This document shows, in pieces, positions 31,478 through 56,979 of a stretch of DNA of 64,000 nt. The notes below the pieces were generated by a model. The model saw only the letters and a list, made by a program, of their open reading frames with translations, searched no databases and was not told where the DNA came from. The number at the start of each line of letters is the position of its first letter. Within the stretch, counting starts at the first letter, position 1. The translations under genes were made by a program, and so were the position numbers. The stretch is from Candidatus Bathyarchaeota archaeon (GTDB taxonomy: Archaea > Thermoproteota > Bathyarchaeia > 40CM-2-53-6): positions 83,358 to 147,357 of the forward strand of contig CAWIHH010000004.1 of assembly GCA_963835925.1 (NCBI GenBank). The letters are read 5' to 3'.

Positions 31478-31530
31478 TTAGTGTGTGAGCCAGGTGGTGC
31501 GCGTCACACACAAAATTGGAGTTCAAATTA
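31478..31530. repeat. Composite intergenic repeat, copy F
   Basis: tTTAGTGTGTGAgccaGGTGGTGCGCgTCACACACaaaattggaGTTCAAATTa: an 8-bp stem GTGTGTGA/TCACACAC around the GGTGCGC core, plus a TTCAAAT module. Confidence 0.65.
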
Positions 31531-32470: not shown

Positions 32471-32528
32471 GTGATTTGAACCGTGATTTAGTGTGTGGGT
32501 ATAGCTGGTGCGCACCAGCCCGCACCAC
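32471..32528. repeat. Composite intergenic repeat, copy B
   Basis: GTGATTTGAACCGTGAtTTAGTGTGTGGGTATAGCTGGTGCGCACCAGCccgcacc. Contains the perfect 16-bp palindrome GCTGGTGCGCACCAGC (32504-32519). Confidence 0.7.
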
Positions 32529-33382
32529 CAAGATTACTTTCTTCACATCAAATGATGTCGTGCTAGTCAAGGTTTCAGCGTTCATTTTAGATGTACTTTG
32601 ATACTAAGCCGAGTATGCCACCAAGGCCGCCTGCGATCAGCCCTATCACAATGAGAACAATAGCCCAAGTGAGGTCGGCAACACATTTAGCGCCATAGAT
32701 AGCAACAAGGCGAGAACGATTTCAATGATCCCCCAAAAAGATCCACCAAAGGCAAAATACAAGCGGGCGAGAAAGATCGGGAAATCTACTTCTATTGTGA
32801 ATCCAGATGAGTGAGTAGCAAGAGGTGCGGACTGCCAGTCACCAAACCGTTTGCCGCGCTCTCTAGGCACCAAACGACAATGAAGCGTTACCTGTATTCG
32901 TAATCTTTCTAGCTATGGCGAGTATAGCACTACTCCTATGTCTGTACACATCAAGCGTAGGTTTGTTTCCCGTGCGATTCCTGAAGGTGAACGTCCCTAC
33001 AGTTCCACTCGACTGCTGAAATCCTATCCTGGTGGAGACACCGGAGACAATTTTGACGCGGCAGTGAGGGACAATGTTTCAATGTGCGAGCAAGGGCGTG
33101 ACACAACAGTAATGTTCAACGGAAAAAAGAAACAATGGGAGCTACGAGAGTGGATTCCGCTCTGAAGCTGGCAAGGGACCAAGAAAGAGGACAGGCTTCT
33201 CCACCTTCCTAACTGCGAGAGTTCCCTTTTTCTCTTTAGGCATAGCTATTCATTCAGTATTCTATATCAAGATTCATTTATTATTTGTGTGTGCGTACCA
33301 GCGTACTGAAAACTCTCGAGCGAGGATTGCGAGCATCTTAACAACGTAGTGATCAAGACCTGAAAGAGAGGAATCTGCATTC

Positions 33383-43910: not shown

Positions 43911-44097
43911 GAGAACCGTCTCTCAAATACTAAATCGGCCGCCGGGCTCCACAGCGTTCTTGTTGCTGGAAGTGGATTCAAAATTCACGGGTTCGAATCT
44001 TGGTGGATTCGAGCTCGCCCGCTATCTTGCCTTTTTCTCATCGCATCACACTTCCACGTGCTCGCTTCGCTCGCATAACAGAGATCTACGTCGTTGC

Positions 44098-44146
44098 GTG
44101 ATTAGGTGGAGTGTGGTGTTGGTTCAGAGGTTAGTGGTGCGCACGC
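44098..44146. repeat. Composite intergenic repeat, degenerate copy E
   Basis: GTGATTaggtggaGTGTGGTGttggttcagaggttaGTGGTGCGCACgcg, just 3' of gene 44182..45702. Confidence 0.4.
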
Positions 44147-44181
44147 GCAAAGAAGTGAGTAGCTTTCGATGTCGACTGTCG

Positions 44182-45702
44182 CTATCCACTTGGCTTCTTA
44201 CGTTTCATCATGAAAATTAGAGTTAGGGCGATAACGATCGCTACGAGAACAGCAGGCAGGATTACCATGCTGGTTCCTATCGAGAACATGGGCGGAACAA
44301 CGCTAGTTGGCGAGGATGAGCTAGTTACTTTCGGAAGAATCGACGTTGATGTCTTTGATGATGCTGTCTGGGTTGATGTGGGTTGTGGAGGGACCAGTTC
44401 AAGGTGCGCCTGTTGGATGGCATCTGGGAAGGCGATCGCATCAGGCGGCAAGGCTTCGATGTAGTTCGCCCGCAGGCTGTTGGTTTTGCCAAGCGGGTAG
44501 ATCCCAACTTCAAGGAGCGCAAGGTAGGTCTTGGAGTCGCACAACCCAGGGTTCTCAGCACTTCCGGAGCAGGCCGCTCGCTCGAATTTGTCTAAATCGT
44601 TGGTCTGAAATCCAATCATGGTTCTCCAGGTCTGTGCGGCGTAGACCACATAGGGGGACGCGGGGGAACTAAAATCCAGCCACTGAAACGATACCGACAG
44701 TCGGCCTGCAAATTTCCTGCTCGCCAGTGCCAGCAGCGGCGCGTTCTGGTCCGTAACATTAGAAGTGTTGAGGCAGACACCGGTGACGTAATTCGGATTA
44801 TTTCGGTCCTTAGGCCAAGGGGGTTGGTAAGCGCAGCCGTTGTCATCAATCGCGGGAAACGGATAATCTAGGTTTCTTGCCTCCGAGGGTGTGGGGATGA
44901 CTTCCACGCCGAAATACTTGTCGGGGAAATTCCTCTGAAAAGAATTTGTAAGTTTGTCCCAAGCGTCAAGCAGTCTGGATGGCCTATAAGGCGGCGTTGC
45001 CTTCAGCCAGGCCTCTAAGGAGTTGGTGACACAAGGGTCGGCAAGGATCTCCGCCGGCAACCGCAGCTCGGAGGTGGTCCGGTCGATTCCCGTAATCCGG
45101 ACCGATGTCAGAGCGCTATAGGTTCCGGTACTCTTGAGATGCGCCGCTACTGCGGCAAGCATGGAATCCCATTCGCTGAGAAAGATCGGCTCCCAAGGAG
45201 CCGCGATGGTTTCCGAATTGCACTTAGACTCCCCGACGCCTGCATGAGGAGAGACGAGGAACCTTAGTGGGGCGGCCCCGGCATATGATTTCGTGTATCC
45301 GGCGCCACACTCGGGCGATTGAAACAGCCAGCACGGCGTATCTTGCCCCGCTCTGATCGCCAAGGCAACCTGCTTGCCTGACGAAACCGCCATACTCATC
45401 CAGTGATCTAGCAGCGTCCAATCATATGCCCCCCTGCTAGGCTCGATGACCTCCCAACCCAGAAGCAGCGTGAGTCCGTCAACGCCGCGCACGGTGAGCG
45501 CTTGCGTCAGCTGCTGCGCATATTGCGGATCCTGAAGATGCTCGGTAAGATGCTCGCTGTAGACATAAATGCCGCGCGGCTCAACCACTGATGCCTGCAC
45601 ATCATTAACTGAAATTGCGATCGTTGAAACTTCTGGAGTCACCAGAAGAATCAGCGCAGCAACAACTACTATTCTTGTCAACCGAACATGAAATCGCAGC
45701 AA
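44182..45702 (-). CDS. Secreted TIM-barrel glycoside-hydrolase-like protein with S/T-rich stalk and C-terminal TM anchor
   Basis: Signal peptide; W-x-x-IEP-x-x-G-x-YDW motif (LLLGWEVIEPSRGAYDWTLLDHW) typical of GH42/GH5-like enzymes; PTSTQTASSKTSTS linker; TM helix plus KRKKPSG tail. Confidence 0.5.
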   Translation of the reverse strand: MLRFHVRLTRIVVVAALILLVTPEVSTIAISVNDVQASVVEPRGIYVYSEHLTEHLQDPQYAQQLTQALTVRGVDGLTLLLGWEVIEPSRGAYDWTLLDHWMSMAVSSGKQVALAIRAGQDTPCWLFQSPECGAGYTKSYAGAAPLRFLVSPHAGVGESKCNSETIAAPWEPIFLSEWDSMLAAVAAHLKSTGTYSALTSVRITGIDRTTSELRLPAEILADPCVTNSLEAWLKATPPYRPSRLLDAWDKLTNSFQRNFPDKYFGVEVIPTPSEARNLDYPFPAIDDNGCAYQPPWPKDRNNPNYVTGVCLNTSNVTDQNAPLLALASRKFAGRLSVSFQWLDFSSPASPYVVYAAQTWRTMIGFQTNDLDKFERAACSGSAENPGLCDSKTYLALLEVGIYPLGKTNSLRANYIEALPPDAIAFPDAIQQAHLELVPPQPTSTQTASSKTSTSILPKVTSSSSPTSVVPPMFSIGTSMVILPAVLVAIVIALTLIFMMKRKKPSG

Positions 45703-45846
45703 GAATATCCCTTAATCATTTTTGAACGCGCGTTTGGCGTTCTCAGAAAATGTGCCAATCGCAATGATTCGCGGGGTTGCGATCTCAATTTCACCCATCG
45801 CGATTGCGATTGAGTTTTGGTTCCCGCAACTCCGACATTGAACTGC

Positions 45847-47406
45847 CTAGCTTTTTTGGCTTTGAGCTGCTTGCGCTGGTCCTCTTGGTTTCCTGCGCAT
45901 TGACACGATGAAAGCTGCACCGACCAGTATAATGATGGCTGCGAGTATCAGCAGGCTGTTTTGCTGGAGCGTGCTCATCAGATCGCCGCCCTGCGTGGTT
46001 GAGGTTTGGGTGCTTCGCCTGGTTGAGCTTGCTCGCGTCTTCGTCTCTGCGGTTTGCGTCTGTGATCCAACGTTCAGAACTAGGTTGGCGACTCGGTTCA
46101 GTCCACCGCCCGTCCCCTTAACTTCCAACGTGAACGAGCCAGCGGGCGTGTTCGCGGGAAGCGTAACCGTAAGCGCAGACGCAAAGTTGGGAGTGCCAGA
46201 TGTGGTGGTGAAGACTCCGTTGGCGCCTGAGGGTAATCCTGATACGGAAAGTGAGACTTGGGAGTTGAAACCGTTCAAGGCGACCACATTGATCTGGTAT
46301 GTGGTTGTCACTCCTTGAGTCGTTGTCTGGGACGGTGGGTTCACGTCGATTCTGAAATCCGGCGACTGCCCAACTGTTAACGTGAACGTTGTAGAGTGTG
46401 ATGTTGCCCCAGCGGTGCCCGTGATCGTCAACGCATACTGCCCGGAAGCCACGGACCCGGTTGTTGTAATGGAGAGTATCGAACTGAAGCTCGGCTTCCC
46501 AGAGGTCGGATTCAACGACGCAGAAACCCCAGCCGGAGCGCCAGAAACAGTCAAAGCCACGTTCTGCGACGTTCCTGACACGAGGCCCACAGTGACCGTG
46601 GATGTTGCGCTTCCCCCGGGCGCGATGGTCTGCTGCGCTGGCGAAGCCGAGATGGAGAAGTCGAACGGCTGCAATGCCTGCACCGTCACTAGACCTTTCG
46701 CCTGATGCACCACGCCCTTCGCAGAACCGGTAAGAGTAATGGAGTAGCCACCGGACGGAGTTGAGCTGGAAGTCGAAACCCGCAGAGTGGGCGGGTTAGG
46801 AATCACCTGATAATTCATCCCCGGCCCCAAACCCGACACCTGAATGTCGATAGACGTACCACTGTACGACGAGTCACTGTACGATATGAGAACCTGAAAC
46901 GTCGCGGTCTCACCCTGCTTAACCGCGACACTAGGCGGAGAGAGCCCGAGACTGAAATCGAAAGGAGCAGTCGAACCAGCCACTTGGAAGCTTGCAGCTC
47001 CCTCCGCTATTGGGTTGTTGACTCCTCCTGGCTCATCGACTGTCACAAGGGCATCATATGTTCCGGGAGTGCTGATGCCGGGAGGGTACACTTCGTAATC
47101 CAATCCGGGTCCAACTTTCATGGTTCCGCTCTGCCAAAGGTCTGAACAAGTTGGACAGGTTCGAATATGCACCGTGGTAGTTTCGGAGCCACCCCATTGA
47201 ATATTGCCAGTATCTTGGATCCAGAAAGCAACCATGAACGATTTGCCTACGGGCACAGGTGCCGGACTAACAGATACGTGGACTATTGCCGCATTTACCG
47301 TTCTCGCAGCACCGCCCACCAACACGACCAACAGGAGCAAAATCACTAGACCGGATTTGACTCGCAAACCCCTTACGCAACTCTCACTCTCGTGAGCGAC
47401 AATCAC
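45847..47406 (-). CDS. Cell-surface protein with three tandem ~95-aa Ig-like repeats, S/T stalk and C-terminal TM anchor
   Basis: Signal peptide; three repeats each beginning (P)FDFS/DFRI...SP...V..G and ending ...TLTV / LVLNV; TM helix plus RRKPRGP tail. Confidence 0.6.
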   Translation of the reverse strand: MIVAHESESCVRGLRVKSGLVILLLLVVLVGGAARTVNAAIVHVSVSPAPVPVGKSFMVAFWIQDTGNIQWGGSETTTVHIRTCPTCSDLWQSGTMKVGPGLDYEVYPPGISTPGTYDALVTVDEPGGVNNPIAEGAASFQVAGSTAPFDFSLGLSPPSVAVKQGETATFQVLISYSDSSYSGTSIDIQVSGLGPGMNYQVIPNPPTLRVSTSSSTPSGGYSITLTGSAKGVVHQAKGLVTVQALQPFDFSISASPAQQTIAPGGSATSTVTVGLVSGTSQNVALTVSGAPAGVSASLNPTSGKPSFSSILSITTTGSVASGQYALTITGTAGATSHSTTFTLTVGQSPDFRIDVNPPSQTTTQGVTTTYQINVVALNGFNSQVSLSVSGLPSGANGVFTTTSGTPNFASALTVTLPANTPAGSFTLEVKGTGGGLNRVANLVLNVGSQTQTAETKTRASSTRRSTQTSTTQGGDLMSTLQQNSLLILAAIIILVGAAFIVSMRRKPRGPAQAAQSQKS

Positions 47407-47602
47407 TGAGCCGCGAAAGCTATTTGAGACTTTGCACGAACCTTCCAGAAATTGAGGGAAGAACGAAGTCGCTGTTCATCGAAACTCCCACGAATCCAAA
47501 CGCGTTCAACAGATCGTCAATCCCTCTAGTTGTTCGAATTTCTGACGAACGCTGAACACAACAAGACCCGACCATATCACGCAACAGCAAAAAATTTGTT
47601 AT

Positions 47603-49207
47603 TTGAACAAAGTGAACATGAAATCGTCGTGGGTACGTGTCAGCTCGCCCAATGCAAAGCTTTTGTTTCTCCTCACAACATTCTTCCATGCAGGAATAGT
47701 TTTCAGATTGGCTTATCCGTTATGGATATTGCTGCTGCTGGCATTGGTTCTTCCCAGCAATGTCTGGCAGGCGGCTGATGCGCAGGCAACGGTGACCGCG
47801 CCTACGATTAGCTACTCGCTCAGCTCTCCCGTCACCTTCGCGACGCACACCGAGCTTGAGAGCTATGGCTTCTCATTTGGCCCCTCGGATGGCCAGTTCG
47901 GAGCAATACCCGCGGGCGGCGCAAGCTACACGTTTTACGGCACGGCTGGTTCTAGGTCCAGGCCTTCGTGCGCAGGAACCCCTAACGTCAAAGGCGCGTT
48001 TACGTTTACTGGTACGCTCGATCGTGTGACCGGAAGCAACGGTTGCACGAGACTGTTCGGTCCAGGGGATGGTCCGTCGGGATGGATCTTCGACAGGGAT
48101 TATGCCGGTGGCGGTCAAGTTGTGCGCTTCGAGAGTGGAGGCAAGAAGGGATGGCTGATGCCCTTCCATGGAGAGGTCTGGTGGCAGAATCCGGCCTCGT
48201 CGGATCACAAGTGCGACGTTTCGGGAAACTCTGGCCTAAGGGTTGACTGCTTCTACTCCTCACTCGGGTTGGCGGTGTCGACAGACGACGGAAAGACCTT
48301 CAGAGTCGTGGGGGAGATTCTCCAGCCCAGCCAACCGATGTCAGTCTTCGTCGGAGGCGGCGCGAACATGATGGTTGGTTACGGCTCGTTGGTCGTTGCC
48401 GACGCGAACGGCAAGCACCTCGATAGCCCATCCGTAGACCTGAAAGGCGCCTATTTCTATCTTTTCTACACCGACTTTCTGCCAGGTTTGCCCGGCGTGT
48501 GCGCCGCCGCAATTTGCATGGGCGTTGCACGCGCACCCTACGCCGATGTGGTCGCGGCTGCACTCTCTAACGATCCACACAAGCTCGCGATGACGTTCCA
48601 CAAGTACGATGGCGCCTCACCGAATCCCTGGACCCAACCCGCCACCAGCGACACCTCAGACTTGTCGGGGACTGCTGGAAGGTACGCGCCTCTCTGGACA
48701 GACGAAGCAGGAGGCGCTGAGGTAATCTACGACAGTACCTTCAACGTGTACCTCGCCGTGCTCAATACCATCGCAGGTGTTAGGGTCCGAGCCTCAAGTG
48801 ATCTGATCCATTGGTCGGGCCCAATTGGCCCCGCATACGATGAAGCAGGCCGCACGCTGTATTATCCAACTCTCCTCGGCGAAACTGGAGATCCAACGAT
48901 TGGAGGTCCTGCACCGCGAATCTACTTCGAAAGCCTACCCGCACGATCCCTTCCAGAGGAAGGAACACCGACCTTGGAGAGCTTGCAACTGAACCTTTCG
49001 TCCCAAACGTCACTCTCAACTGCGACGACTGCAAGGACTAGCACATCGGTCTCTAGTCCTGCATCAGTATCAAGTACCGAGATGTCAAACTCCCCGTATC
49101 ACTGGCAAAACGAGATTGGTTTAATCGTGATCGTCGCAGTGGTTTTAGCCGTTATTCTCGGCGGCATTTTCGTTTTGCGAAAACGAGGTGAGAAGTCGGA
49201 GAGCTAG
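47603..49207 (+). CDS. Secreted protein (possible beta-propeller glycosidase-like) with S/T stalk and C-terminal TM anchor
   Basis: Signal peptide (LWILLLLALVLPSNVWQAADA), beta-rich body, SSQTSLSTATTARTSTSVSS linker, TM helix plus RKRGEKSES tail. Family not assignable by eye. Confidence 0.45.
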   Translation: MNKVNMKSSWVRVSSPNAKLLFLLTTFFHAGIVFRLAYPLWILLLLALVLPSNVWQAADAQATVTAPTISYSLSSPVTFATHTELESYGFSFGPSDGQFGAIPAGGASYTFYGTAGSRSRPSCAGTPNVKGAFTFTGTLDRVTGSNGCTRLFGPGDGPSGWIFDRDYAGGGQVVRFESGGKKGWLMPFHGEVWWQNPASSDHKCDVSGNSGLRVDCFYSSLGLAVSTDDGKTFRVVGEILQPSQPMSVFVGGGANMMVGYGSLVVADANGKHLDSPSVDLKGAYFYLFYTDFLPGLPGVCAAAICMGVARAPYADVVAAALSNDPHKLAMTFHKYDGASPNPWTQPATSDTSDLSGTAGRYAPLWTDEAGGAEVIYDSTFNVYLAVLNTIAGVRVRASSDLIHWSGPIGPAYDEAGRTLYYPTLLGETGDPTIGGPAPRIYFESLPARSLPEEGTPTLESLQLNLSSQTSLSTATTARTSTSVSSPASVSSTEMSNSPYHWQNEIGLIVIVAVVLAVILGGIFVLRKRGEKSES

Positions 49208-50156
49208 CGTGGATTCTCACCACCACTCCATTCTTGACACTTCTATAGCGCCGCGACCTCAACATGTTTCGCGGCAGAATTGCACTCAACTAAGAAGGCA
49301 GATCTCATCAACAGGAAGCGCTGCTTTTCCTGTTCCCACACAAGTGAATTGTGTCGAGGAGCTTTCACCAGAAGACAGTTTGTCTTAGTTCCAATTGCAC
49401 GAACATGGCGGAAAACAGGCCGTCGCAGATTCTACATGTATTGGCTGAGGTGAGATCTGTTCGGGTAGCCAATACGGAACAGGGCGGATAGTAATATCTG
49501 ATATCAAGAATCAATCAAGCACGGAGAAGCAGGTCGGTAGACGTTCAATCTTAAAGTGGATTGGAGCAGTTACGGCAGCCACAATCGTGGGCGAAGTCGA
49601 AAGCTACGAGGCAAGCCAACCTTTCAGGCCGGTTAGAACGGTAACAGATACCACTTTTATCAAGACAACAACTACTAGCATTTACTCGAGTACACCTAGC
49701 ACGACCCTATCTGGTACTCCAGCTAGGGACCTACGACCCGTGATCAATCAGATCGGCCTGAGGGTTCGCACTCAAACCACGGCGCACCATGCACGGTTCA
49801 CGCGTTAGCCTTTCTACTAGAATACATGTATGCGACCCGCCTTGTCTCCGACCTATCGGAAGAGTACCTGCAATACGTCACCTTTCAAGTCGAGGGACCC
49901 CCGATGAAGGGAGAAGAGAATTTCTGGGCTCTGAATATTGGCTATCAGAAGGGGGGGGTAGTCCCGCAGACCTTTCTCGCCAATCAAAACAAAGTTCCAA
50001 CAAGCATTCAAAATACGATCCTCGAAATGAGAAGGAGCGGAATGCGCTTCAATCCGGTATTCATCAGGAACTGGGATTCAACGACCGGTGCCACTCAGGG
50101 CCAGCTCAAGTAAGCAATCAAATATTTAGATCAGAACATTCCGTACCGGAGACAAA

Positions 50157-51380
50157 GTGAAAGTTGGATCCTTGGAAGTTGAACCGATCCATGTTGACCA
50201 TTCAGTACCAGGCGCTTACGGATTCATAATTCACACAACTGAAGGCGCAGTAATCTACTCCGGAGACTTCCGAATACATGGCACCAAATCTGAAATGACT
50301 CGTGACTTCGTGAAGGCCGCTGCTGAAAACAAACCCATAGCCATGCTTTGTGAAGGCACGAACCTGATCGGAGCTGATTTCTCAACTGAGCACGAGGTCA
50401 ATGAAAAGATAAACAAAGTCGTCGGCACGACACAGAATTTAGTGCTTGCCAGCTTCCGTCATACGGACGTTGATCGCACAAGGACCCTGTTTGAAGTTGC
50501 AAAACGCAACCAACGCAAACTCGCGATTTCTCTCCGACAGGCGTACATGTTGAACAAACTCAAGGCAGACAAGAATCTTGACCTGCCAGCTGTTGACTCG
50601 AAGGATTTTCTGATCTTCAAACGCGAAAAGAAATCGTACTTCAAGTGGGAGAAGGCTATCTTAGATTTCCCAAACGCCGTAGATGCACAGGAAGTGAAAC
50701 GAATGCAGAGCAAAGTCATCCTTGCGACAGGTTTCTCCGACCTCAAGGAATTAGTTGACATGCATCCAATGCAGAGCGACCCGTTTTGGAGGCAGAAGTC
50801 CACAAAATCTGCGAACAGACGAAGAATCCTGACTGCCCTGACTGAAGCTGGTCAGACCTTCGGCGAGTTGGAGAGGAAGGTGGAGTTGTCACGTCCCGTA
50901 CTAAGCATCTACATGAAGGAATTGGAGAAGGCCGGCGAGGTTGCTCGCCAAATCAAAGGTAGACGGATCGAGTACGTTCTTACGGACAAAGGAAAAGGCC
51001 AGGAGAGAATGCGCCGAGAATCAATTGCGAAGGCGTTTCAGGTAGTAGGGCAACTCACACGAAATTACTCTTCGGCGAAGTCTATGCTGGAAATCGCTGA
51101 GTTTGCGAAAGAGTCGCCAGAGTTCTTTGCAGAATTTCTGCAGTGGATGACTGATTATATGACTCTGGTATTGAGCGATGACACTCTGCGATGGCTTAGA
51201 AGACATAGAGATGGAAGCGGGAAATTGCTCCAGGCAGAGGTAATGAAGAAATTGGCGCCATTCATCAAAGAGATACATGCCGATTCAGAAGATGACCCAA
51301 AGAAAGTGATGTCGATCTTTCAAAATCTACTCAATTCAATGAAAGAAGTCATATCGGAAACAGGTGGAACTCGACCATGA
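50157..51380 (+). CDS. Chimeric protein: internal fragment of an RNase J-like MBL/beta-CASP nuclease fused to an ArsR-like wHTH and a helical C-terminal domain
   Basis: Residues 1-~210 match the RNase J region spanning motif 3 (VDHSVPGAYGF), motif 4 (YSGDFRIHG) and beta-CASP motif A (LCEGTNL). The HxHxDH motif and the C-terminal MBL half are absent. The wHTH reads RRILTALTEAGQTFGELERKVELSRPVLSIYMKELEKAGEV. GTG start; an in-frame stop lies 30 nt upstream. Confidence 0.55.
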   Translation: MKVGSLEVEPIHVDHSVPGAYGFIIHTTEGAVIYSGDFRIHGTKSEMTRDFVKAAAENKPIAMLCEGTNLIGADFSTEHEVNEKINKVVGTTQNLVLASFRHTDVDRTRTLFEVAKRNQRKLAISLRQAYMLNKLKADKNLDLPAVDSKDFLIFKREKKSYFKWEKAILDFPNAVDAQEVKRMQSKVILATGFSDLKELVDMHPMQSDPFWRQKSTKSANRRRILTALTEAGQTFGELERKVELSRPVLSIYMKELEKAGEVARQIKGRRIEYVLTDKGKGQERMRRESIAKAFQVVGQLTRNYSSAKSMLEIAEFAKESPEFFAEFLQWMTDYMTLVLSDDTLRWLRRHRDGSGKLLQAEVMKKLAPFIKEIHADSEDDPKKVMSIFQNLLNSMKEVISETGGTRP

Positions 51381-52621
51381 ATCCTCTTCATCTTTCAGGT
51401 TGGGGTGTGAAAATCCGCGCCAACAATCTCAAGTCAAGATCTGAGCTTGAAGTCATAAATGGACGAGAAGATGGTAGAGCTGAATCATCGAATGGTTTTC
51501 GTCCTCGACGTTTCCCCTACAGCAGCATAATTATTGATGGACACAGCGGATACATTTCATTGCAGGCGTTTCACTGGCTGTCGAAGCATAAAGTTCCTGT
51601 TTTTGTAATTGGCTTCGACGGCACCATCATCTCTAGTATTCTTCCTCCGATTCCTGTGAAGGCTGATGTTAGGGCTGCGCAGTTCCAAGCTGCTAGTGAT
51701 CCGAAGAAGAGGTTCAAGATTGCTAGAGCGCTTGTTCAGGCGAAGATTGCTAGGAGCTTGCAGGTTTTGGATTGGTTGGGTGAACGTTATGATATTCATA
51801 GAGAGATTTGGGTAACGAAGCTTGAGGCATCAAAACTCAGAACAGCAAACACTGTTCCTGACTTGCGAGTGGTGGAAGGACGTGTGGCTAGGCGCTACTG
51901 GGAAGCATTCGGTAAGGTGATGCCTGAACATCTCGACTTTCAGGGTCGTATGACTTCGAGTCATCAGAATAATGCGTCTGATCCGGTGAACTTGGCGTTG
52001 AATTACGCTTACGGAGTTCTTGAAGGGGAATGCAGGCGAGCAATCAACGCAGTGGGGTTAGAGCCGTCGGTGGGGTTCTTACATGATTTCAGTGATTATC
52101 AAACGAAGCAGTCGTTGGTTTATGATTTGCAGGAGCCGTTCAGATGGCTTTCCGACATGTCCGTTATCGGGGCGTTTGAGTCGGAGGCTTTGAAGCTTTC
52201 AGATTTCTACTTCACGGGGGATGATTACAGGTATCGCTTTCAGCCTGAGGCGAGGCAGCGATTCATCGACATTGTTCGTGAACGATTCAATTCAGGTGCA
52301 AGCTACAGGGGGCGGGTTCTGAAGTGGGATACGGTCATTGAACAGAAGACAACCGAACTCGGACGGATGCTGGTAAATAGAACACGTACAATTGATTTTT
52401 CTGATCCTGAAATCAAGCTGCTAAGGCATGACGATCGCGAGCTGAGAGCAAGAATCCTCTCTCTTAGCCAGTCTGAAGCAAGAAAGCGTGGCATTGGGAA
52501 AAGCACACTCCACTACTTGAGAAAGAATGTCTCGCGTGGCGGCTCTTTCAGGGTTCATGAGCAAATTCGACAGAAAATCGTGGTCTGTAATTCAAGTTCA
52601 TCAGGGCTACAACAGGAGTGA
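51377..52621 (+). CDS. cas1: Stand-alone Cas1-family integrase with C-terminal HTH (casposase-like architecture)
   Basis: N-terminal beta domain (YISLQAFHWLSKHKVPVFVIGFDGTII). Catalytic core with E (VVEGRVARRYWEAF), H (DPVNLALNYAYGVLEGE...GLEPSVGFLHD) and D/E (SLVYDLQEPFRWLSD). C-terminal HTH (LSQSEARKRGIGKSTLHYLRKN). ATGA overlap with the upstream gene. Confidence 0.85.
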   Translation: MNPLHLSGWGVKIRANNLKSRSELEVINGREDGRAESSNGFRPRRFPYSSIIIDGHSGYISLQAFHWLSKHKVPVFVIGFDGTIISSILPPIPVKADVRAAQFQAASDPKKRFKIARALVQAKIARSLQVLDWLGERYDIHREIWVTKLEASKLRTANTVPDLRVVEGRVARRYWEAFGKVMPEHLDFQGRMTSSHQNNASDPVNLALNYAYGVLEGECRRAINAVGLEPSVGFLHDFSDYQTKQSLVYDLQEPFRWLSDMSVIGAFESEALKLSDFYFTGDDYRYRFQPEARQRFIDIVRERFNSGASYRGRVLKWDTVIEQKTTELGRMLVNRTRTIDFSDPEIKLLRHDDRELRARILSLSQSEARKRGIGKSTLHYLRKNVSRGGSFRVHEQIRQKIVVCNSSSSGLQQE

Positions 52622-53291
52622 AGATTCATTCTTGAAGATCCCAAACGCTGGGAATATTGACGCAGCCAAGAAAATACGCGCGGAACTGACATGGATCTAC
52701 GTGGACGAAGTCCTCTACAGAGAATTCGAGCGATTGAAGGAAAACATAAACTCACGTGATGTGGCGTACAAGGTTGTCATGGTGGACAGTTTGCACAACT
52801 GCAGACTAGCGATGGATCCGTGGGAAGTTGCGGGCTTGATAATCGGTGCCAAGGTGGATGAAAAATTCGATCGCGTTGAGCCAGCGACCTTGGTTGGAGA
52901 GATTGCCAACATGGAAATCAAGAAAGTTGGCAAAAGAAGAAGATTGAATCTGGGTCCAGTCTTCTCTAGCAAGTTTTGCCACTTTCATCGCCCTAAGCGA
53001 TTCGCCATCTACGACAAGTTCGCCGACAAAGCTCTAGGAGACCTGCTGGAGCGCCAAGGGAAATTCAGTTATGCAGAATTCCAGTTGTCACTTGACAAGT
53101 TGATTCGGGAAGCTAATCCGCCTCCAAATTACAAGGAAATTGACGTTTACCTCTGGCTCTACGGGCAATGGCTGGACTATAATGGCGGCAACCGAGTGTC
53201 GAGTGAAATCAAGGAAGCCATTTCGAGACAGCGCGAACTTTTCTCACAGCTCTACCCGACCCACGCTGATAACAAGAATTGTGGCCCTTAG
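52527..53291 (+). CDS. Hypothetical protein (start uncertain; may begin after the cas1 stop, e.g. TTG near 52633)
   Basis: 254-aa ORF. The first 31 codons overlap cas1 in another frame. Contains an SSKFCHFHRPKRFAIYDKFA segment. No family recognised. Confidence 0.5.
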   Translation: MSRVAALSGFMSKFDRKSWSVIQVHQGYNRSEDSFLKIPNAGNIDAAKKIRAELTWIYVDEVLYREFERLKENINSRDVAYKVVMVDSLHNCRLAMDPWEVAGLIIGAKVDEKFDRVEPATLVGEIANMEIKKVGKRRRLNLGPVFSSKFCHFHRPKRFAIYDKFADKALGDLLERQGKFSYAEFQLSLDKLIREANPPPNYKEIDVYLWLYGQWLDYNGGNRVSSEIKEAISRQRELFSQLYPTHADNKNCGP

Positions 53292-53418
53292 TCAGTCGGA
53301 GGCAGAACAGCTTGGTATTGGGAGGAGTACTCTCCATTACTTGCGCCGCGATGCAGAGAATGCCCTGTCGCTCAGAGTGCCCTCAAGAATTCGAGATAAG
53401 ATTGGAAGAGTAAGCTAG
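53266..53418 (+). pseudogene. Remnant of a second Cas1-type C-terminal HTH tail
   Basis: Own translation LITRIVALSQSEAEQLGIGRSTLHYLRRDAENALSLRVPSRIRDKIGRVS* aligns with the Cas1 tail LRARILSLSQSEARKRGIGKSTLHYLRKNVSRGGSFRVHEQIRQKIVV (about half identical). No upstream Cas1 body in this frame. Confidence 0.55.
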
Positions 53419-54903
53419 TTGGAAATGGATTTCCGAATTCAGTTCCTAGACATAGACCAAAGCACTTTGAAATCAGTACCTGACTTGCTTTATCCAGTAA
53501 TCTGGGAGCAAGTCAACAGTTTCAAGAAACGATGCTTGGGAGCAGAGCCAGAACGGACAGGTAAAGCGCTCCCTCTAGTACTAGCTATCAGGAATCCTAG
53601 TGTCCAGTCAGCTAGTGGAGTACTGAAGATTCAGCTAATTATCCCTGGATGGGAGAATGAGAAAGGATCAACTCTTTCGATGGATGCAGATTGTCCTTTT
53701 CAGGAAGTCAACGCAGGTGAAACCAAAGAGATTGTGCTCATGGAGGTGTCGAATATTCCTCTACTCAGAATGTACCTTAGGACTGCTGAATTCTACAAGT
53801 CCGGCAAACGCGTAGAGGCAAAGATGACAGGTCATCGTAGTTTCGTTTTCAAGACCACAGGTGATTTCTTAATCTCTTCGGCGTCAAGCAAGATTGAGGA
53901 TAAAGAAGATGAGCGCAACATTGAACGCATAGAACATGAAATCGGTTTCGAGAATTATTTCCTCCTCAAGACCTACTTGGATTTGCCAGTCTATGAAAGA
54001 GGCATCATTCTCAGAGTCTTATTCGACCGCATGGAGGACATACTGAAAGGCCGCGTACTTGCAGATTCGACTCCTGACAGAAAGGCGGCCATACAACACC
54101 TGTTGCAAATTGAAATAATCTCAAAGATTTGCATGATGATCGAGGACCTAGGACTCTTCTCTGTATCAATGCGAACAGGAATCAAGGAGCTGTGTAACAT
54201 ATTCCTTGATGAAGGTAGCAGCAATAAGGTCGGCCAATTCTACAGGGACCTCGATGAATTAAACGGTGAAGATTTTCTTAGAGTTCTATCCTTTCCGACC
54301 GCAGACTCGCTTCGTCTGTCCGCATCGGACTATGAAGTAGTGAACAAAGTGCTTCAGAGCGTACAACAGGAAGCTAGACGAGTATACCACGAAATAGCAA
54401 AATTCAGAAAACAGCACTGGACCTTGTACAATAAGTACAAACATGGATTCGCAATCATCCCGTACGTGCAAAAAACTGCGGGAAACATAGATTTCTTGGC
54501 CGATGTGGAGTCTGCAGTCTTCGTCCTACATGACAAAAGATCACCTTTGAAGGAAGTCATAACTGTTCCTTACAGTGCGAGAATCCTAGAAGCGTATAGG
54601 ATTCTGATCGTTGGGATTCAAGCCCTTCTGAAGAACGTCCTTGAGAACCAGCTTAATCTTCTGGAGAATCCGAATTTGATCAATCTGCCGATGCCCAGTG
54701 AGAGTCTGACGGCAGATGAACGTTCACGATATGCAGCAGTAACGAAGAGATTCCAACCAGCAAAGGAAACAAATCGAGATCATCGAATACACGTCAGAGC
54801 TTTTGCAAAGAAAGATGACCTGAAATGGTATGCGGACTTGCCAAAGTTCTTGGAAGAAAGTGCAGAAAGGGGTAAGCGCGAACAGTCGAGCAGATCAGAT
54901 TAG
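53419..54903 (+). CDS. Hypothetical 494-aa protein (beta-rich N-terminal domain, helical C-terminal domain)
   Basis: Long intact ORF immediately after the HTH remnant. Likely ATG at 53425. No family recognised. Confidence 0.5.
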   Translation: MEMDFRIQFLDIDQSTLKSVPDLLYPVIWEQVNSFKKRCLGAEPERTGKALPLVLAIRNPSVQSASGVLKIQLIIPGWENEKGSTLSMDADCPFQEVNAGETKEIVLMEVSNIPLLRMYLRTAEFYKSGKRVEAKMTGHRSFVFKTTGDFLISSASSKIEDKEDERNIERIEHEIGFENYFLLKTYLDLPVYERGIILRVLFDRMEDILKGRVLADSTPDRKAAIQHLLQIEIISKICMMIEDLGLFSVSMRTGIKELCNIFLDEGSSNKVGQFYRDLDELNGEDFLRVLSFPTADSLRLSASDYEVVNKVLQSVQQEARRVYHEIAKFRKQHWTLYNKYKHGFAIIPYVQKTAGNIDFLADVESAVFVLHDKRSPLKEVITVPYSARILEAYRILIVGIQALLKNVLENQLNLLENPNLINLPMPSESLTADERSRYAAVTKRFQPAKETNRDHRIHVRAFAKKDDLKWYADLPKFLEESAERGKREQSSRSD

Positions 54904-54960
54904 TGATTTTCTCCTTAGCGCGGGGCTCTTGGTGCTGGCGTCGTTGTTCGTCGTTAGGAA

Positions 54961-55027
54961 AGTGTGTGTGGGTCTACTGGTGCGGCCGATTGAATTTGAA
55001 CCGGCCTTGTTTTCATGTGTGTGTTTT
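54961..55027. repeat. Composite intergenic repeat, copy D
   Basis: aGTGTGTGTGGGTCTACTGGTGCGGccgattGAATTTGAACCGGccttgttttcatGTGTGTGTt, lying between convergent genes 53419..54903 and 55034..56656. Confidence 0.65.
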
Positions 55028-55033
55028 CAGCGT

Positions 55034-56656
55034 TTAGGTTTTTGTTGGGTGTTTGCGGCGTAACAAGTACACACCAACAGCCACGACAGCTACCGCGACG
55101 ACCGCCGCAACTATCAAAGTATTGCTGGGCGCGCCCGTTACGATGGGTTTAGTCGTAGTCTCGCTGGAAGTCATCGCCTTTGCCGTAGTGAGACGAGTAA
55201 TGCCCTGCGACGGCAATGTGATTACGAAGTTCTGTTGCCTCGTGTAGGTGCTGTTCGACAACTGCTGGACGTGAATGCTGAGGTTACTTCGCTGGCCACT
55301 CGAGGCCGTAACGGTCACCGTGTAGTAACCAGCAAACCCACGAAAACCAATCTGACCCTTATCATCAGTCAACGCGCTGCCCTTCGTCCTGAACATTTGC
55401 ATCAACCCCAGAAAGACGGAATATGATTGTCTCAGATCGCCGCCCTGTGTGAAAAGACCCATTTCATCAAATTCACCCGCCTTTCCCTGCGTTTGAATGT
55501 CAACCATAGTTAGGAGATGATCACCTAAGGTGTTGTCCATTCCGAACGGAAGCGTAGCCATGTACTTCACCCAGTCCGCTTGCATGGTTTCATCATAGGT
55601 CGTCCCCCACGCCGTCCAATGGCAACTTTGACAGTCGTATGCCGGGTAGCCTCCTTCCTGAATGAAGACTCCCTTGCCGAGGCTTTGCAGTTGCTGAATC
55701 TTTGCTTTATAGAATGAAGGTGTGTGATTCTCATTCTCGTTGGGCGGACCACCCGGATAGGCTTCGACAGAGAACCCGTCCACTCGAAGACCGCTGACGA
55801 GAGCCATGTGAGCAAAATCATAGGGCGAAAAATGTCCACGTGAAGCAACATAGCGCCCCGCATAGGAACTCCCGCTCAAGTCAAAACCAACCATCAAGAG
55901 AACCTTCGCATCCTGCTGTGCATCTCTAATTGCTTGAACCTCAACCCGGTCGACATCGATAGAGTTCTGCATATTTCCCATCAGAACTGTCCAAGATGGG
56001 TCTAGGTCAGGTTCCGTCTCCGTAATCCAATAGTCCACCATGTTTCCATAACGCTTCACGTTCTGGTAGACGTAATCATACAAATCCTTCTTGAACTGGT
56101 CGAAGACAGCGGGATTTGACAATTGTTGCATGTTAGCCCAGGCTGGATAGCTCGGATACGGATCATAGGGATCCGCCTCGGCGAGAGTGCGAAAGACTAT
56201 GATGAAACGCGCCGTGGGGCAGAGGCTGCGTTCTTGTTTGAAAGGGTTGTCATACGCATCCCAACGGTAGACGCCTCTTTGAGGCTCGACTTGGGGCCAT
56301 TGGTTCCAGATCAACTTTATCGTGGCGTTCATGAATGTACACAAATCGCTGTAGGTTTTTTGGGCCTGAGGATTATTCTCGGCTGCTCTGGCAAATCCCT
56401 CAAAACCGAACTTGAAATCGTGGCTGGTCTGTTGGTAGGAGACATTCAGATTCTTGACCGGATGGCCCGACGAGTCCAGAACGGTAATGGTAACACCATT
56501 CTTGCGATGCTGCTCAATATACTGCAACGCCTGCTGATACGCAGCCTCCTCTTGAGTCAGGTCAGGAGGTTGCCCCCAAACTCGAAACGGAATCACACCC
56601 ACCAGAACCAGTGTTATCAGACAAATCGCGAGAACGAGCTTCCAGTGAAAGGACAA
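55034..56656 (-). CDS. Secreted TIM-barrel glycoside-hydrolase-like protein (GH10/GH5-like) with beta-sandwich domain, S/T stalk and C-terminal TM anchor
   Basis: Signal peptide; FKFGFEG...WNQWPQVEPQRGVYRWD motif; carboxypeptidase-regulatory-like segment (GFAGYYTVTVTASSG); TM helix plus RRKHPTKT tail. Confidence 0.5.
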   Translation of the reverse strand: MSFHWKLVLAICLITLVLVGVIPFRVWGQPPDLTQEEAAYQQALQYIEQHRKNGVTITVLDSSGHPVKNLNVSYQQTSHDFKFGFEGFARAAENNPQAQKTYSDLCTFMNATIKLIWNQWPQVEPQRGVYRWDAYDNPFKQERSLCPTARFIIVFRTLAEADPYDPYPSYPAWANMQQLSNPAVFDQFKKDLYDYVYQNVKRYGNMVDYWITETEPDLDPSWTVLMGNMQNSIDVDRVEVQAIRDAQQDAKVLLMVGFDLSGSSYAGRYVASRGHFSPYDFAHMALVSGLRVDGFSVEAYPGGPPNENENHTPSFYKAKIQQLQSLGKGVFIQEGGYPAYDCQSCHWTAWGTTYDETMQADWVKYMATLPFGMDNTLGDHLLTMVDIQTQGKAGEFDEMGLFTQGGDLRQSYSVFLGLMQMFRTKGSALTDDKGQIGFRGFAGYYTVTVTASSGQRSNLSIHVQQLSNSTYTRQQNFVITLPSQGITRLTTAKAMTSSETTTKPIVTGAPSNTLIVAAVVAVAVVAVGVYLLRRKHPTKT

Positions 56657-56879
56657 ATGAAACCCGTAAATTGGACTCTAGGCTTGGCTTAAATAATTTA
56701 CCTGAATGGGCAAACACGCAGTAACCGTTAGTACGATAACTACTTTTTTCAAAACAGACCATGCGGCCCTGAACCGAGGTAATGATGCTTCGGATTACGT
56801 TCCGCTTCTTCTTGAACTCATCTTCTGCCCTTGCGTGTTTGCAGGCGTTTTCAATCGGGGGCGTTGTCGCTGGTGCAGA

Positions 56880-56979
56880 CGTGATTTGAACCGTTAGGTT
56901 GGTAGTTTTCTGTGTGTGTGTGCGCACCAGCTATACCACACACAGAGAAAAATTCCTGAACGACGACGGTTCAAATTCA
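56880..56979. repeat. Composite intergenic repeat, copy C (complete palindromic form, MITE-like)
   Basis: Outer inverted repeat TGATTTGAACCGT (56881-93) / ACGGTTCAAATTCA (56965-78). Inner 10-bp perfect stem TCTGTGTGTG / CACACACAGA around TGTGCGCACCAGCTATAC. The core is the reverse complement of copy B. Confidence 0.7.

Follow-up and report, generated by a model that had tools for sequence, protein, structure and literature searches.

A stand-alone cas1 locus in a Bathyarchaeia contig as the likely remains of two casposons from a PolB-less family

The stand-alone Cas1 locus on this Candidatus Bathyarchaeota contig is a relic of mobile elements rather than a novel defence system. The DNA between 50.76 and 54.97 kb of the window (the whole 64-kb stretch that was analysed) most likely represents the decayed remains of two neighbouring casposons belonging to a single Bathyarchaeia-specific family without a family-B DNA polymerase (PolB). 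The assignment draws on homology to intact relatives, with one recognisable end in the window itself. It agrees with one reading offered in the initial annotation, that of a PolB-less casposon derivative or remnant: a casposase homologue is present, relatives carry terminal inverted repeats (TIRs) and target-site duplications (TSDs), and one end has been kept. The predicted features are as follows:

50136..50762, plus strand: internal fragment of an RNase J gene (TIGR00649; nucleotide match to L064)
50760..51380, plus strand: winged helix-turn-helix (wHTH) gene of the casposon, cluster c5 (HxlR/ArsR/HVO_A0261_N matches)
51377..52621, plus strand: full-length casposase, a Cas1-family integrase with C-terminal HTH (PF01867, 6OPM, catalytic residues)
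52632..53291, plus strand: cargo gene of element 1, PF27257 (HI_0787_N) protein (alignment of relatives, PF27257)
53266..53418, plus strand: second casposase 3' remnant (HTH tail, about codons 350-405), element 2 (similarity to Cas1)
53419..54903, plus strand: orphan 494-aa cargo gene, element 2 (no database match; homologues in L031-33)
54904..54970, minus strand: right terminal repeat, reading inward CCACACACACTTTCCTAACGACGAACAACGAC..., with (CA)n terminus at 54970-54962
54971..55002, minus strand: target site, tRNA-3'-end-like GGTTCAAATTCAATCGGCCGCACCA (55002-54978), then the 7 nt GTAGACC
56871..56944, no strand assigned: second casposon-type junction, 1.9 kb beyond the first (sequence reading)

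The open reading frame (ORF) at 51377-52621 had been described as a Cas1 with an apparently intact catalytic triad and a C-terminal HTH, and profile searches against Pfam (PF01867, E=1.9e-52) and NCBIfam (TIGR00287, 178 bits) bear this out. Its catalytic residues, E167, H236 and E253 plus D250, correspond to the motifs originally quoted (E167, H236 and D250/E253) and are invariant in 121/121 casposase family members. The M. mazei family-2 casposase (6OPM) scored 252 bits over residues 6-401, HTH included, at 35% identity, whereas the best CRISPR Cas1 reached only 93 bits; because of these scores the protein is, as far as homology tells, a casposase and not a CRISPR-type Cas1. Its C-terminal HTH aligns with that of the M. 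mazei enzyme. Among casposon Cas1 proteins, such a domain is confined to family-2 casposons (PMC4046053), and the casposase C-terminal HTH is essential for integration (PMC6977970).

The 407-aa ORF immediately upstream (50157-51380) had been read as a chimera of an RNase J fragment and a wHTH, and both halves were recovered. The RNase J fragment in its 5' part covers positions 125-294 of 546 in TIGR00649 (E=8e-17), equivalent to about residues 136-344 of a 442-aa archaeal RNase J; over 50136-50762 the DNA is 75% identical to L064:1302-1928, a stretch inside a full-length 442-aa RNase J ORF. Neither the N-terminal metal-binding motifs nor the C-terminus is part of the fragment, and a search upstream of it did not find the N-terminal part. 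The HxlR/ArsR/HVO_A0261_N wHTH matches fall in the C-terminal half, at residues 216-280, and the probable native start of the wHTH gene is the ATG at 50760 (Met202 of the ORF). Judged by these alignments, the chimera is an RNase J fragment fused upstream of a casposon wHTH gene, and the fragment marks the left limit of casposon-derived DNA. The suggestion of a nuclease-derived regulator is therefore not supported, the nuclease part being an internal RNase J gene fragment. The wHTH is 30% identical (E=2e-15) to the product of a 199-aa wHTH gene in L001, which overlaps the L001 casposase by 4 nt; similar genes occur in L058, L072 and L093, and the wHTH is the sole neighbour of the window casposase that recurs in other casposase loci (about 115 loci). 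In the window, an ATGA overlap at 51377-51380 joins the end of the wHTH ORF to the casposase start; this overlap, the ORF coordinates and the abutment at 53418/53419 are all as the initial annotation gave them.

The 254-aa gene that follows had been called unknown. Its product can be placed in Pfam family PF27257 (HI_0787_N). Relatives (282 representative clusters) align to residues 36-245 of the ORF, so the start of the gene is probably close to 52632. The structure prediction and fold search proposed for the protein gave an all-helical AF2 model (pLDDT 89.9) whose best Foldseek matches, Ogg, MutY and EndoIII, had E-values of only 0.06-0.6 and TM-scores of 0.36-0.48; they weakly suggest a HhH-GPD glycosylase-like fold. 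The block formed by the casposase and 254-aa genes is 76-80% identical to L035-39, where 22 nt, (TG)n and a 14-nt target copy, in that order, separate the 254-aa gene from the next element. In the window, similarity to L035-L039 at the DNA level extends no further than 53260 and gives way to a casposase tail, so the last codons and the stop of the gene derive from fusion to the next segment.

This second, diverged Cas1-HTH tail, also part of the original description, proved real: Cas1 residues 356-401 have a 57% identical counterpart at 53266-53403 (E=2e-13), and casposase family members give 118 tblastn matches in the region. At 53418/53419 it abuts, with no spacer, the 494-aa ORF, whose product has no match in Pfam, NCBIfam, PADLOC, PHROGs or PDB; a search of 5.8 billion clusters yielded just 3 relatives, which share 80-90% identity with it. 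Over the block 53311-54918, identity to L031-33 is 90.5% (88-90% overall for L031-34). In L031-34 the block is likewise preceded by a casposase 3' remnant of varying length (195 aa in L034, 36 codons in L031-33), which in each case lies immediately before the 494-aa homologue, and is followed by a GTGTGTGG terminus. In about 115 other casposase loci, homologues of the 254-aa and 494-aa genes are entirely lacking, which speaks against the earlier proposal of a Cas1-solo module acting as a new integration or defence system; elsewhere, their homologues stand each alone or behind a different truncated casposase. By these comparisons, the two are separate right-end cargo genes from two different elements. 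Conservation of the neighbourhood of Cas1, 254-aa and 494-aa genes was not observed, the wHTH alone recurring. Since the 254-aa and 494-aa genes do not co-occur with this Cas1 lineage, a functional module of the three is not supported.

At least 536 relatives of the casposase were found in metagenomes, nearly all from Bathyarchaeia. At least 120 casposase clusters share 66% identity or more, which would also suit a host-beneficial role. Intact relatives measure 8.6-14 kb, have (CA)n-terminated inverted repeats and perfect 14-nt TSDs, and are inserted at tRNA 3' ends (tRNA-Pro, tRNA-Lys) or tRNA-like sequences; the duplication includes the final ~7 nt of the tRNA or tRNA-like sequence. For example, L016 lies at a tRNA-Pro 3' end with perfect 65-nt TIRs and the 14-nt TSD CCCACCACGATTTC on both sides, and L017 lies at tRNA-Lys with a TSD matching at 13/14 positions. 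A scan of all loci for the arrangement 14mer-(CA)n...(TG)n-14mer returned 52 strand-wise matches (26 pairs) against 0 in the control, and at least 11 distinct elements with perfect TSDs enclose a casposase. Several MAGs carry 2-3 copies plus fragments. New copies settle beside old ones and so form tandem arrays. Same-genome copies, at 65-78% nucleotide identity, appear to be old, and recent activity is hinted at by the perfect TIRs of L016 only. A conserved trio, consisting of a P-loop NTPase (c1), a basic protein (c2) and a small protein with invariant DxD, H and DD (c3), is present in 37 of the 39 metagenome loci whose upstream sequence extends over 5 kb or more. The trio was sought in the window and is absent; it is also missing from L064, L007, L015 and L029, and in some cases this may be a natural variant rather than decay. 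No ORF with PolB motifs occurs in the TSD-bounded elements, and Pfam searches of their largest unidentified genes gave no PolB; close to a casposase, PolB is represented solely by a cellular PolB1 and by a paralogue lying outside the L016 element. Apparently, these elements constitute a large family of PolB-less Bathyarchaeia casposons that has so far gone undescribed.

Domestication is an unlikely alternative explanation, under which the host would keep the wHTH-casposase pair, and perhaps the genes downstream of it, as a Cas1-solo system for regulation, DNA repair or defence. The casposase family is very well conserved and the wHTH-casposase overlap has been kept, yet intact relatives have TIRs and TSDs at their borders and are present several times in a genome, and the locus context shows no synteny between genomes. 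Similarly, 5'-truncated casposase ORFs persist beside cargo genes in many genomes, but these copies lack E167. The cargo of relatives includes defence-type domains (OLD-TOPRIM, Schlafen/AlbA_2, HEPN, NT5C), but the downstream genes differ at every locus. Within the broken element of the window, the casposase ORF is whole and has all catalytic residues, as domestication would predict.

The element terminus and target junction at 54938-55001, overlooked in the initial annotation, form the sole canonical end in the window. The right repeat resembles the termini of intact L005, L007 and L025, with local scores of 52-54 where 200 shuffles reached at most 43, and its junction architecture is common to at least 18 sites. 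The pattern GTTCAAAT-N9-11-GCACCA-N7-CACACA has one match in the window and none in 100 shuffles. The target position corresponds to the 3' end of the real tRNA-Pro and tRNA-Lys genes in L016 and L017, respectively, and the last 14 nt of the target (54984-54971, CGCACCAGTAGACC) are the counterpart of the sequence duplicated in intact elements. A terminus is preserved on the right side, while a left TIR and a second copy of the 14-mer were sought in the window and not found. The second junction comprises (TG)n at 56911-56922, the 14-nt CGCACCAGCTATAC at 56923-56936 and (CA)n at 56937-56944, and the minus strand has a tRNA-like motif at 56892-56871. Tandem-element boundaries in L005, L008 and L037-39 show the same (TG)n-14 nt-(CA)n architecture, and the site looks like the boundary of two further adjacent element remnants.

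A complete, still-mobile short casposon without c1-c3, its left end diverged beyond recognition, is a very improbable source of this arrangement. Four relatives do without the trio, as noted above, and partner TIRs were likewise not found by sequence for L011 and L017, the latter of which has a TSD nonetheless. However, the 54 kb to the left contain no copy of the 14-mer (up to 3 mismatches) adjoining a (TG)n/(CA)n terminus, a truncated housekeeping-type gene lies at the left boundary, and the interior casposase remnant and truncated cargo end imply a deletion.

The preferred reading, two decayed neighbouring casposons, would involve the following steps. By analogy with the family-2 casposases that have been characterised from M. 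mazei and A. boonei, the enzyme, with its E/H/E site and C-terminal HTH, would join (CA)n ends to target DNA some 7 nt beyond the CCA-proximal end of a tRNA (or tRNA-like) stretch, yielding the 14-nt duplication. Element 1 would have supplied the wHTH gene, the intact casposase and the PF27257 cargo gene, and element 2 the last ~50 casposase codons, the orphan 494-aa gene and the right terminal repeat, which would still adjoin its tRNA-3'-end-like target. Judging from the breakpoints, one deletion would have taken out the right end of element 1 together with most of element 2 and the target copy that the two shared. In another rearrangement, the left arm of element 1 (c1-c3, left repeat and left target copy) would have been lost and the wHTH gene fused to the RNase J gene fragment. 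The order of these events is a reconstruction. With left arm and right end lost, the locus would no longer be able to transpose as a unit; the casposase, its gene being intact, could act in trans.

The reported lack of CRISPR repeats, cas2, cas4 and PolB in the 64 kb was confirmed: no CRISPR-like spaced repeats were present, Cas2 and Cas4 models had 0 matches in 70 window ORFs of 60-260 aa, and DNA_pol_B is not among the window's Pfam families with E<2e-21. A remnant of a CRISPR-Cas adaptation module that has lost its array, cas2 and effectors is effectively refuted already, since, although generic Cas1 profiles match strongly and databases name relatives 'CRISPR-associated endonuclease Cas1', the protein is much nearer to casposases (252 against 93 bits) and has their type of HTH, the array, cas2 and cas4 are all missing from the 64 kb, and about 115 related loci have TIRs and TSDs but no CRISPR context.

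Among known systems, the family-2 casposons (M. mazei MetMaz, Aciduliprofundum boonei AciBoo-C1) likewise encode a Cas1-family casposase with a C-terminal HTH (PMC4046053) and the same catalytic E/H/E triad. Both groups have TIRs (with TSDs of 14-15 bp reported for family 2 and 14 nt here), integrate at tRNA 3' ends with a duplication overlapping the last tRNA bases, form tandem arrays, carry an accessory HTH protein beside the casposase and are similar in size (range 6-16 kb). Unlike family 2, the Bathyarchaeia elements have no family-B DNA polymerase and no detected HNH nuclease, the c1-c3 trio standing in their place; their hosts are Bathyarchaeia rather than Euryarchaeota, identity to the M. 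mazei casposase is 35%, and the termini begin with (CA)n, the window subfamily having an internal tRNA-like motif. The proposed 'family 5' from hot-spring metagenomes also comprises casposase-like Cas1 proteins with conserved catalytic residues, mostly without a DNA polymerase, with variable hypothetical neighbours and some TIRs, and was suggested by its authors to consist of non-self-replicating transposons (PMC9755687). However, its members reportedly have no C-terminal HTH and branch near subtype I-A Cas1 and the Cas1-solo outgroup (PMC9755687); the Bathyarchaeia family, which has the HTH and is nearest to family 2, is set apart by that description. The Cas1-Cas2 integrase of CRISPR-Cas adaptation has a homologous fold and active site and duplicates its target, and repeated single-site insertions there create an insert array with duplicated target copies, as here. 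In contrast, the present system has no Cas2, CRISPR array, leader or effector genes, and its inserts are kilobase-sized and gene-carrying, with inverted termini and a 14-nt duplication instead of a 25-40-nt repeat. Finally, Cas1-solo group 1 of Methanomicrobiales (Makarova 2013; Krupovic 2014) resembles the locus in having a stand-alone cas1 without CRISPR, but it lacks the full catalytic set and any sign of mobility (PMC4046053), whereas the present family is mobile and has invariant catalytic residues.

The Cas1 gene lies in a compact array of five ORFs, all of which were confirmed, together with the 4-nt ATGA overlap (51377-51380) and the spacer-less junction at 53418/53419:

50157-51380, plus strand, 407-aa ORF, RNase J fragment joined to a winged HTH (wHTH)
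51377-52621, plus strand, 414-aa Cas1, referred to here as the window casposase
ending at 53291, plus strand, 254-aa ORF
53140-53418, 92-aa ORF containing a second Cas1 C-terminal tail
53419-54903, plus strand, 494-aa ORF

The 414-aa product matches PF01867 (E=1.9e-52), TIGR00287 (178 bits) and more than 30 PADLOC Cas1 models. In a search against all PDB sequences, the top match was 6OPM (252 bits, E=7e-74), the family-2 casposase of Methanosarcina mazei, whose active site is E162/H232/E247 (PMC6977970), whereas the top CRISPR Cas1, A. fulgidus 4N06, reached only 93 bits. Identity to 6OPM is 35% over 385 aligned positions, and the alignment spans residues 6-401, the C-terminal HTH included; the 6OPM HTH is matched by residues 356-401 (ILSLSQSEARKRGIGKSTLHYLRKN vs ILSISYVDWKKLGFSKGTLHYMKQN). 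The equivalents of the M. mazei catalytic residues are E167, H236 and E253, and these, along with D250, are invariant in 121/121 aligned family members, which bears out the apparently intact active site noted in the initial annotation. Integration by the M. mazei casposase requires the HTH (PMC6977970), and a C-terminal HTH on Cas1 is confined to family-2 casposons according to the founding paper (PMC4046053). Taken together, the 6OPM ranking, the invariant catalytic set and the HTH identify the protein, at the level of sequence, as a casposase homologue rather than a CRISPR-type Cas1. It may be termed family-2-like, a placement by pairwise ranking against PDB chains.

The surroundings likewise hold neither the cas2 gene beside cas1 nor the CRISPR array by which a CRISPR-Cas adaptation module is recognized. 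Tandem Repeats Finder and a search for spaced direct repeats returned no CRISPR-like repeats in the 64 kb, Cas2 and Cas4 models had no match among the 70 window ORFs of 60-260 aa, and DNA_pol_B was absent among the window Pfam matches with E<2e-21. The second Cas1-HTH tail is equally genuine (57% identity over 46 residues, E=2e-13) and attracts 118 tblastn matches from family members. In the 407-aa ORF, the N-terminal half matches RNase J (TIGR00649 positions 125-294 of 546) and the C-terminal half is a winged HTH. With the ORFs, the Cas1, the second tail, the RNase J::wHTH ORF and the gene absences all verified, the underlying observation is confirmed.

The initial annotation had offered two explanations for this arrangement, namely a PolB-less casposon remnant or a new module centred on Cas1 and the 254- and 494-aa genes. 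The second was weighed against the neighbourhoods of related casposases. In a large protein database, at least 120 clusters share at least 66% identity with the window casposase, the named ones being Bathyarchaeia entries labelled 'CRISPR-associated endonuclease Cas1'. A scan of one genome per species gave 24 casposase loci, of which 23 come from MAGs of Bathyarchaeia/Bathyarchaeota or unclassified archaea and one from a genome labelled Nitrososphaerales; six MAGs each carry two or three copies. At least 536 relatives were found in a metagenome scan, and a search of IMG/VR for free or viral forms found none in viral contigs. When all ORFs from the casposase loci were clustered, the genes directly 3' of the casposase proved to vary in nearly every locus, so a conserved Cas1 + 254-aa + 494-aa neighbourhood was not borne out, and no homologues of the 254- or 494-aa proteins occurred in the clustered loci. 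The new module is thus unsupported. A conserved downstream partner was also considered and rejected: genes of ~400 aa follow the casposase in three relatives' loci (L001, L005 and L006), and pairwise BLASTP found them unrelated to the 494-aa protein.

The casposon reading, on the other hand, is supported by evidence of mobility in the relatives. For example, locus L016 carries perfect 65-nt inverted repeats (8156-8220 and 17105-17169) around the casposase and three conserved genes, c1-c3. Its left repeat adjoins the 3' end of tRNA-Pro(GGG), and the 14-nt sequence CCCACCACGATTTC is directly duplicated outside both repeats. In another instance, L017 at tRNA-Lys(CTT), CCCGCCATACCAGT and CCCGCCACACCAGT lie 8.3 kb apart; sequence search did not find the partner terminal inverted repeats (TIRs) of L017 and L011, and the second end of L017 was recovered later by a search based on the target-site duplication (TSD). 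The same duplication pattern is seen in L001, L008 and L005. All loci were also scanned blindly for the pattern '14-mer-(CA)n ... (TG)n-same 14-mer', which gave 52 strand-wise matches (26 pairs), against 0 in a control with reversed 14-mers. At least 11 distinct elements of 8.6-14.1 kb have perfect 14/14 duplications with a casposase inside each, and more than 11 of the relatives' elements have (CA)n/(TG)n termini. The general junction consists of a tRNA-3'-end-like GTTCAAAT-N10-GCACCA, a spacer N7 and the (CA)n terminus, and boundaries between adjacent elements read (TG)n-14 nt-(CA)n. The casposons of A. boonei and M. mazei have been demonstrated to duplicate 14-15 bp that overlap a tRNA gene at its 3' end (PMC6977970). 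The dispersed motif GTGTGTGTGGGTCTA.TGGTGCG was considered as a possible sRNA, terminator or MITE; this was rejected because its reverse complement is the tRNA-like end plus 7 nt plus an element terminus.

One such end is present in the window, immediately right of the 494-aa gene:

54904-54970, minus strand, right terminus, with (CA)n at 54970-54962, reading leftward into the 494-aa gene
54977-54971, minus strand, 7-nt spacer of the target segment, adjoining the (CA)n terminus
55001-54978, minus strand, tRNA-like part of the target segment

The junction pattern matches once in the window and in 0 of 100 shuffles, and the terminus resembles those of L005, L007 and L025 (scores 52-54 vs a shuffle maximum of 43). 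It abuts a tRNA-3'-like fragment, not a full tRNA gene; the sole tRNA gene of the window is a tRNA-Arg at 15111-15188. The self-alignment proposed in the initial annotation succeeded for this right-end junction only, since the remaining TIR/TSD pairs in a self-comparison of 47-58 kb were at chance level. No left repeat or partner terminus was found in the window, and the window copy shows no TSD, with CGCACCAGTAGACC occurring a single time window-wide, which fits loss of the left end.

Comparison with the relatives reveals a mosaic. The block containing the 494-aa gene (53311-54918) is 90.5% identical to L031-33 and 88% to L034, loci in which a casposase 3' remnant (36 codons or 195 residues) precedes the 494-aa homologue and GTGTGTGG occurs within ~15 nt 3' of it. 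The casposase-254 block has other relatives: it matches L037-39 over 51935-53260 (76% identity) and L035 over 52526-53260 (80%). The casposase of L037-39 is 5'-truncated (222-246 aa) and precedes the 254-aa homologue, after which 22 nt, (TG)n and CGCACCATTAGACC lead up to the neighbouring element's (CA)n terminus. Homology of the window to these loci breaks off at 53260, ~30 nt before the stop of the 254-aa ORF, and the sequence goes on as the casposase tail remnant. The simplest reading of this internal breakpoint would be two tandem elements joined by a deletion: element 1 contributing the wHTH, casposase and 254-aa genes, and element 2 the casposase tail, the 494-aa gene and the right terminus. 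Such a deletion would have removed the right end of element 1 along with the target copy common to both elements and the bulk of element 2. On the left, 50136-50762 matches, at 75% identity, the interior of an RNase J gene (full-length, 442 aa) in the relative's locus L064, so the 407-aa 'chimera' is an RNase J gene fragment fused to the wHTH gene. Casposon-derived sequence starts at ~50760, with Met202 of the 407-aa ORF as the likely native wHTH start. The full-length RNase J gene (L064:1005-2333) lies ~5 kb from the casposase on the opposite strand, and the window fragment ends where an inversion would leave it if one breakpoint fell within such a gene. RNase J may be either a host neighbour or cargo.

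In composition, GC falls from 0.54-0.56 (44000-50000) to 0.46-0.47 (50000-55000) at the left edge of the casposon-derived block; the high-GC stretch 44000-50000 encodes three large secreted, low-complexity surface-type proteins. In L023, the closest related genome fragment (88-90% nucleotide identity in host genes), the region is rearranged relative to the window, and comparison with it found no empty site for the window genome. Overall, the window very probably holds a casposase in the broken remains of two adjacent PolB-less, family-2-like casposons; of the two original explanations, the casposon remnant is the right one, given the casposase homologue, the TIR/TSD-bounded relatives and one canonical end. 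In itself, the window copy is unremarkable debris, a mosaic of transposon pieces and no new system.

Beyond the right terminus lies a further gene:

55034-56656, minus strand, gene for a 540-aa secreted-type protein with no Pfam match

It is flanked by two junctions, 54962-55023 and 56871-56944. The second reads (TG)n-CGCACCAGCTATAC-(CA)n, as is typical where one element abuts another, which makes the DNA to the right of the Cas1 module an insertion hot spot as well. Three additional casposon-type junction motifs, composed of (TG)n/(CA)n runs with GCACCA-like 14-mers and of GGTTCAAAT motifs, occur in a lower-GC stretch at 31480-31512, ~32474-32530 and 33286-33293. These bracket small ORFs (30763-31440 and 32047-32439) and so may delimit single-gene mini-elements or remnants. 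Not adjacent to the Cas1 module, the window also encodes DUF790 (Bax1/PbeA-like, E=2e-109), a ResIII helicase, a tyrosine recombinase (Phage_integrase, E=9e-23) and an AAA protein matching IetA models.

For the relatives, the absence of a polymerase was judged by ORF size, motifs and profile searches on a subset. No family-B polymerase motifs were found in the ORFs of TSD-bounded relatives, and the largest ORF is at most 476 aa in five TSD-bounded elements. Pfam searches of the largest unassigned genes in these elements gave OLD-like TOPRIM, Schlafen/AlbA_2, NT5C, peptidase A4 and weak HEPN matches and no PolB; no HNH match was obtained in the proteins scanned. The only PolB with canonical motifs near a casposase, in L007 (same place as L041), was rejected as element-borne, being the cellular replicative PolB1 (793 bits to 1S5J). 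A paralogue in L016, 25% identical to the L007 PolB1, lies outside the duplication-bounded element. Defence-type domains (OLD-like TOPRIM, a weak HEPN, Schlafen/AlbA_2 and NT5C 5'-nucleotidase) are found among the following cargo genes of intact elements, and the relatives' casposons may shuttle defence genes:

L016:8590-9744
L016:16253-17050
L017:8144-9274
L008:9281-10507

In place of PolB sits the c1-c3 trio, conserved upstream of the casposase and divergently oriented. Among the 39 metagenome loci in which 5 kb or more of sequence precedes the casposase, 37 have at least one of the three genes and 24 have all three; trio-carrying loci are L001, L005, L008-L011, L013, L014, L016, L017 and most of L040-L119. 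The c1 protein (270-300 aa) carries a Walker A motif and weakly resembles TniB/AAA_22, c2 (125-185 aa) is basic, and c3 (110-157 aa) has invariant D-x-D, H and DD residues and a beta-alpha-beta-beta-alpha core. Pfam, PHROGs, NCBIfam and PDB profiles gave no match beyond the c1 P-loop and an unknown phrog for c3. A natural c2-c3 fusion exists as a single protein (P0285), and its AlphaFold model (pLDDT 45) is too poor to use. In relatives, the start of the casposase usually overlaps with an HTH gene, either a wHTH or one of another kind. The window holds no trace of c1, c2 or c3.

Turning to the cargo of the window, 282 representative clusters of ~205-225 aa align to residues 36-245 of the 254-aa ORF, and therefore the gene probably starts near 52632, just 3' of the casposase stop. 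A database places the protein in PF27257 (HI_0787_N), a model that postdates the local Pfam copy; a large-database search with a concatenated 254+c3 query returned 11 proteins only. The fold search suggested in the initial annotation was productive in part: the AlphaFold model is confident (pLDDT 89.9) and all-helical, and the best PDB folds found with Foldseek are all HhH-GPD glycosylases (MjOgg, Tm1821, MutY and EndoIII), with weak scores (E 0.06-0.6, TM 0.36-0.48). K114 and D128, a Lys and an Asp 14 residues apart, are invariant in the family, and no HhH-GPD sequence-profile match was obtained. Because the fold matches are weak, a glycosylase-like function is a lead rather than a finding. 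The 494-aa protein is an orphan: 5.8 billion clusters yielded three relatives, and neither profiles nor the PDB gave a match.

Casposase genes truncated at the 5' end are in strong excess, C-terminal pieces making up 10/11 truncated matches in the one-genome-per-species scan, and most lack E167 (L019-L027, L030, L034, L037-L039 and L008:10755-11393). Several directly precede a cargo gene, the right terminus following the cargo in L037-39 and L034; in L038, the truncated casposase starts 3 nt after a host Ham1-like gene. Element termini of the window's subfamily hold a tRNA-like motif ~20 nt inside the (CA)n end, and short tandem ladders of 2-3 units (period ~57-62 nt) have the unit [tRNA-like 24 nt]-N7-(CA)n-~20 nt:

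L010:3115-3230
L029:292-374 and 1124-1209
L030:4055-4135

The ladders and the internal motif suggest self-targeted nested insertions or subterminal casposase-binding repeats.

The window points to an apparently undescribed variant of casposons, in which the conserved gene set is new and junction and array structures are unusually rich. A bolder proposal, which we consider rather unlikely as a whole, is an undescribed family in which c1-c3 replace PolB, target-mimic ends build insertion arrays and transposition is polar and replication-coupled. Here, c1-c3 (a P-loop NTPase and a DxD/H/DD protein) could be primase-polymerase-like, an idea that for c3 derives from motifs, or form a new replication or targeting module. 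Since the ends mimic their own tRNA-like target, repeated casposase insertions would build arrays of gene-sized cassettes and 57-62-nt 'stub' ladders, parted by 14-nt duplications, and the excess of right-end copies (5'-truncated casposase, cargo and terminus) would reflect the polar, replication-coupled mode. The CRISPR adaptation machinery is presumed to descend from casposons; if this proposal were true, the family would offer a living analogue of the postulated casposon-to-CRISPR-array intermediate.

With at least 536 relatives in metagenomes, the family shows that a transposon lineage driven by a casposase can succeed without PolB. No published mention of Bathyarchaeia casposons turned up in full-text literature searches; the family extends the casposon range to this lineage, which is abundant in sediment and peat. 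The many natural junctions, tandem arrays and truncated copies provide material for the study of Cas1-family target recognition and array formation, and the current label 'CRISPR-associated endonuclease Cas1' is misleading for these genes.

Compared with the casposon superfamily, the window has a Cas1-family integrase with the complete catalytic set, but only the right terminus where relatives have TIRs at both ends, and it lacks the ~14-15 bp TSD found in relatives. PolB, present in all casposons of the founding, 'self-synthesizing' definition (PMC4046053), is absent from the window, and its TSD-bounded relatives show no PolB motifs and, among the ORFs profiled, no Pfam PolB match. With family 2, the Bathyarchaeia elements share the C-terminal HTH on Cas1, seen in the window casposase, and insertion at a tRNA 3' end, seen in L016 and L017. 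The family 2 core set comprises PolB (PolB3-like), an HNH endonuclease and two HTH proteins, whereas the Bathyarchaeia family is without PolB, gave no HNH match in the proteins scanned, conserves one wHTH protein beside the casposase and has c1-c3 instead of that core. PolB-less casposase contigs from hot springs have been proposed as 'family 5' (PMC9755687); by description, these lack the HTH and branch near subtype I-A Cas1 (PMC9755687), whereas the Bathyarchaeia family has the HTH and combines family-2-type casposases, exact 14-nt duplications and tRNA-end targeting with a different gene trio replacing PolB.
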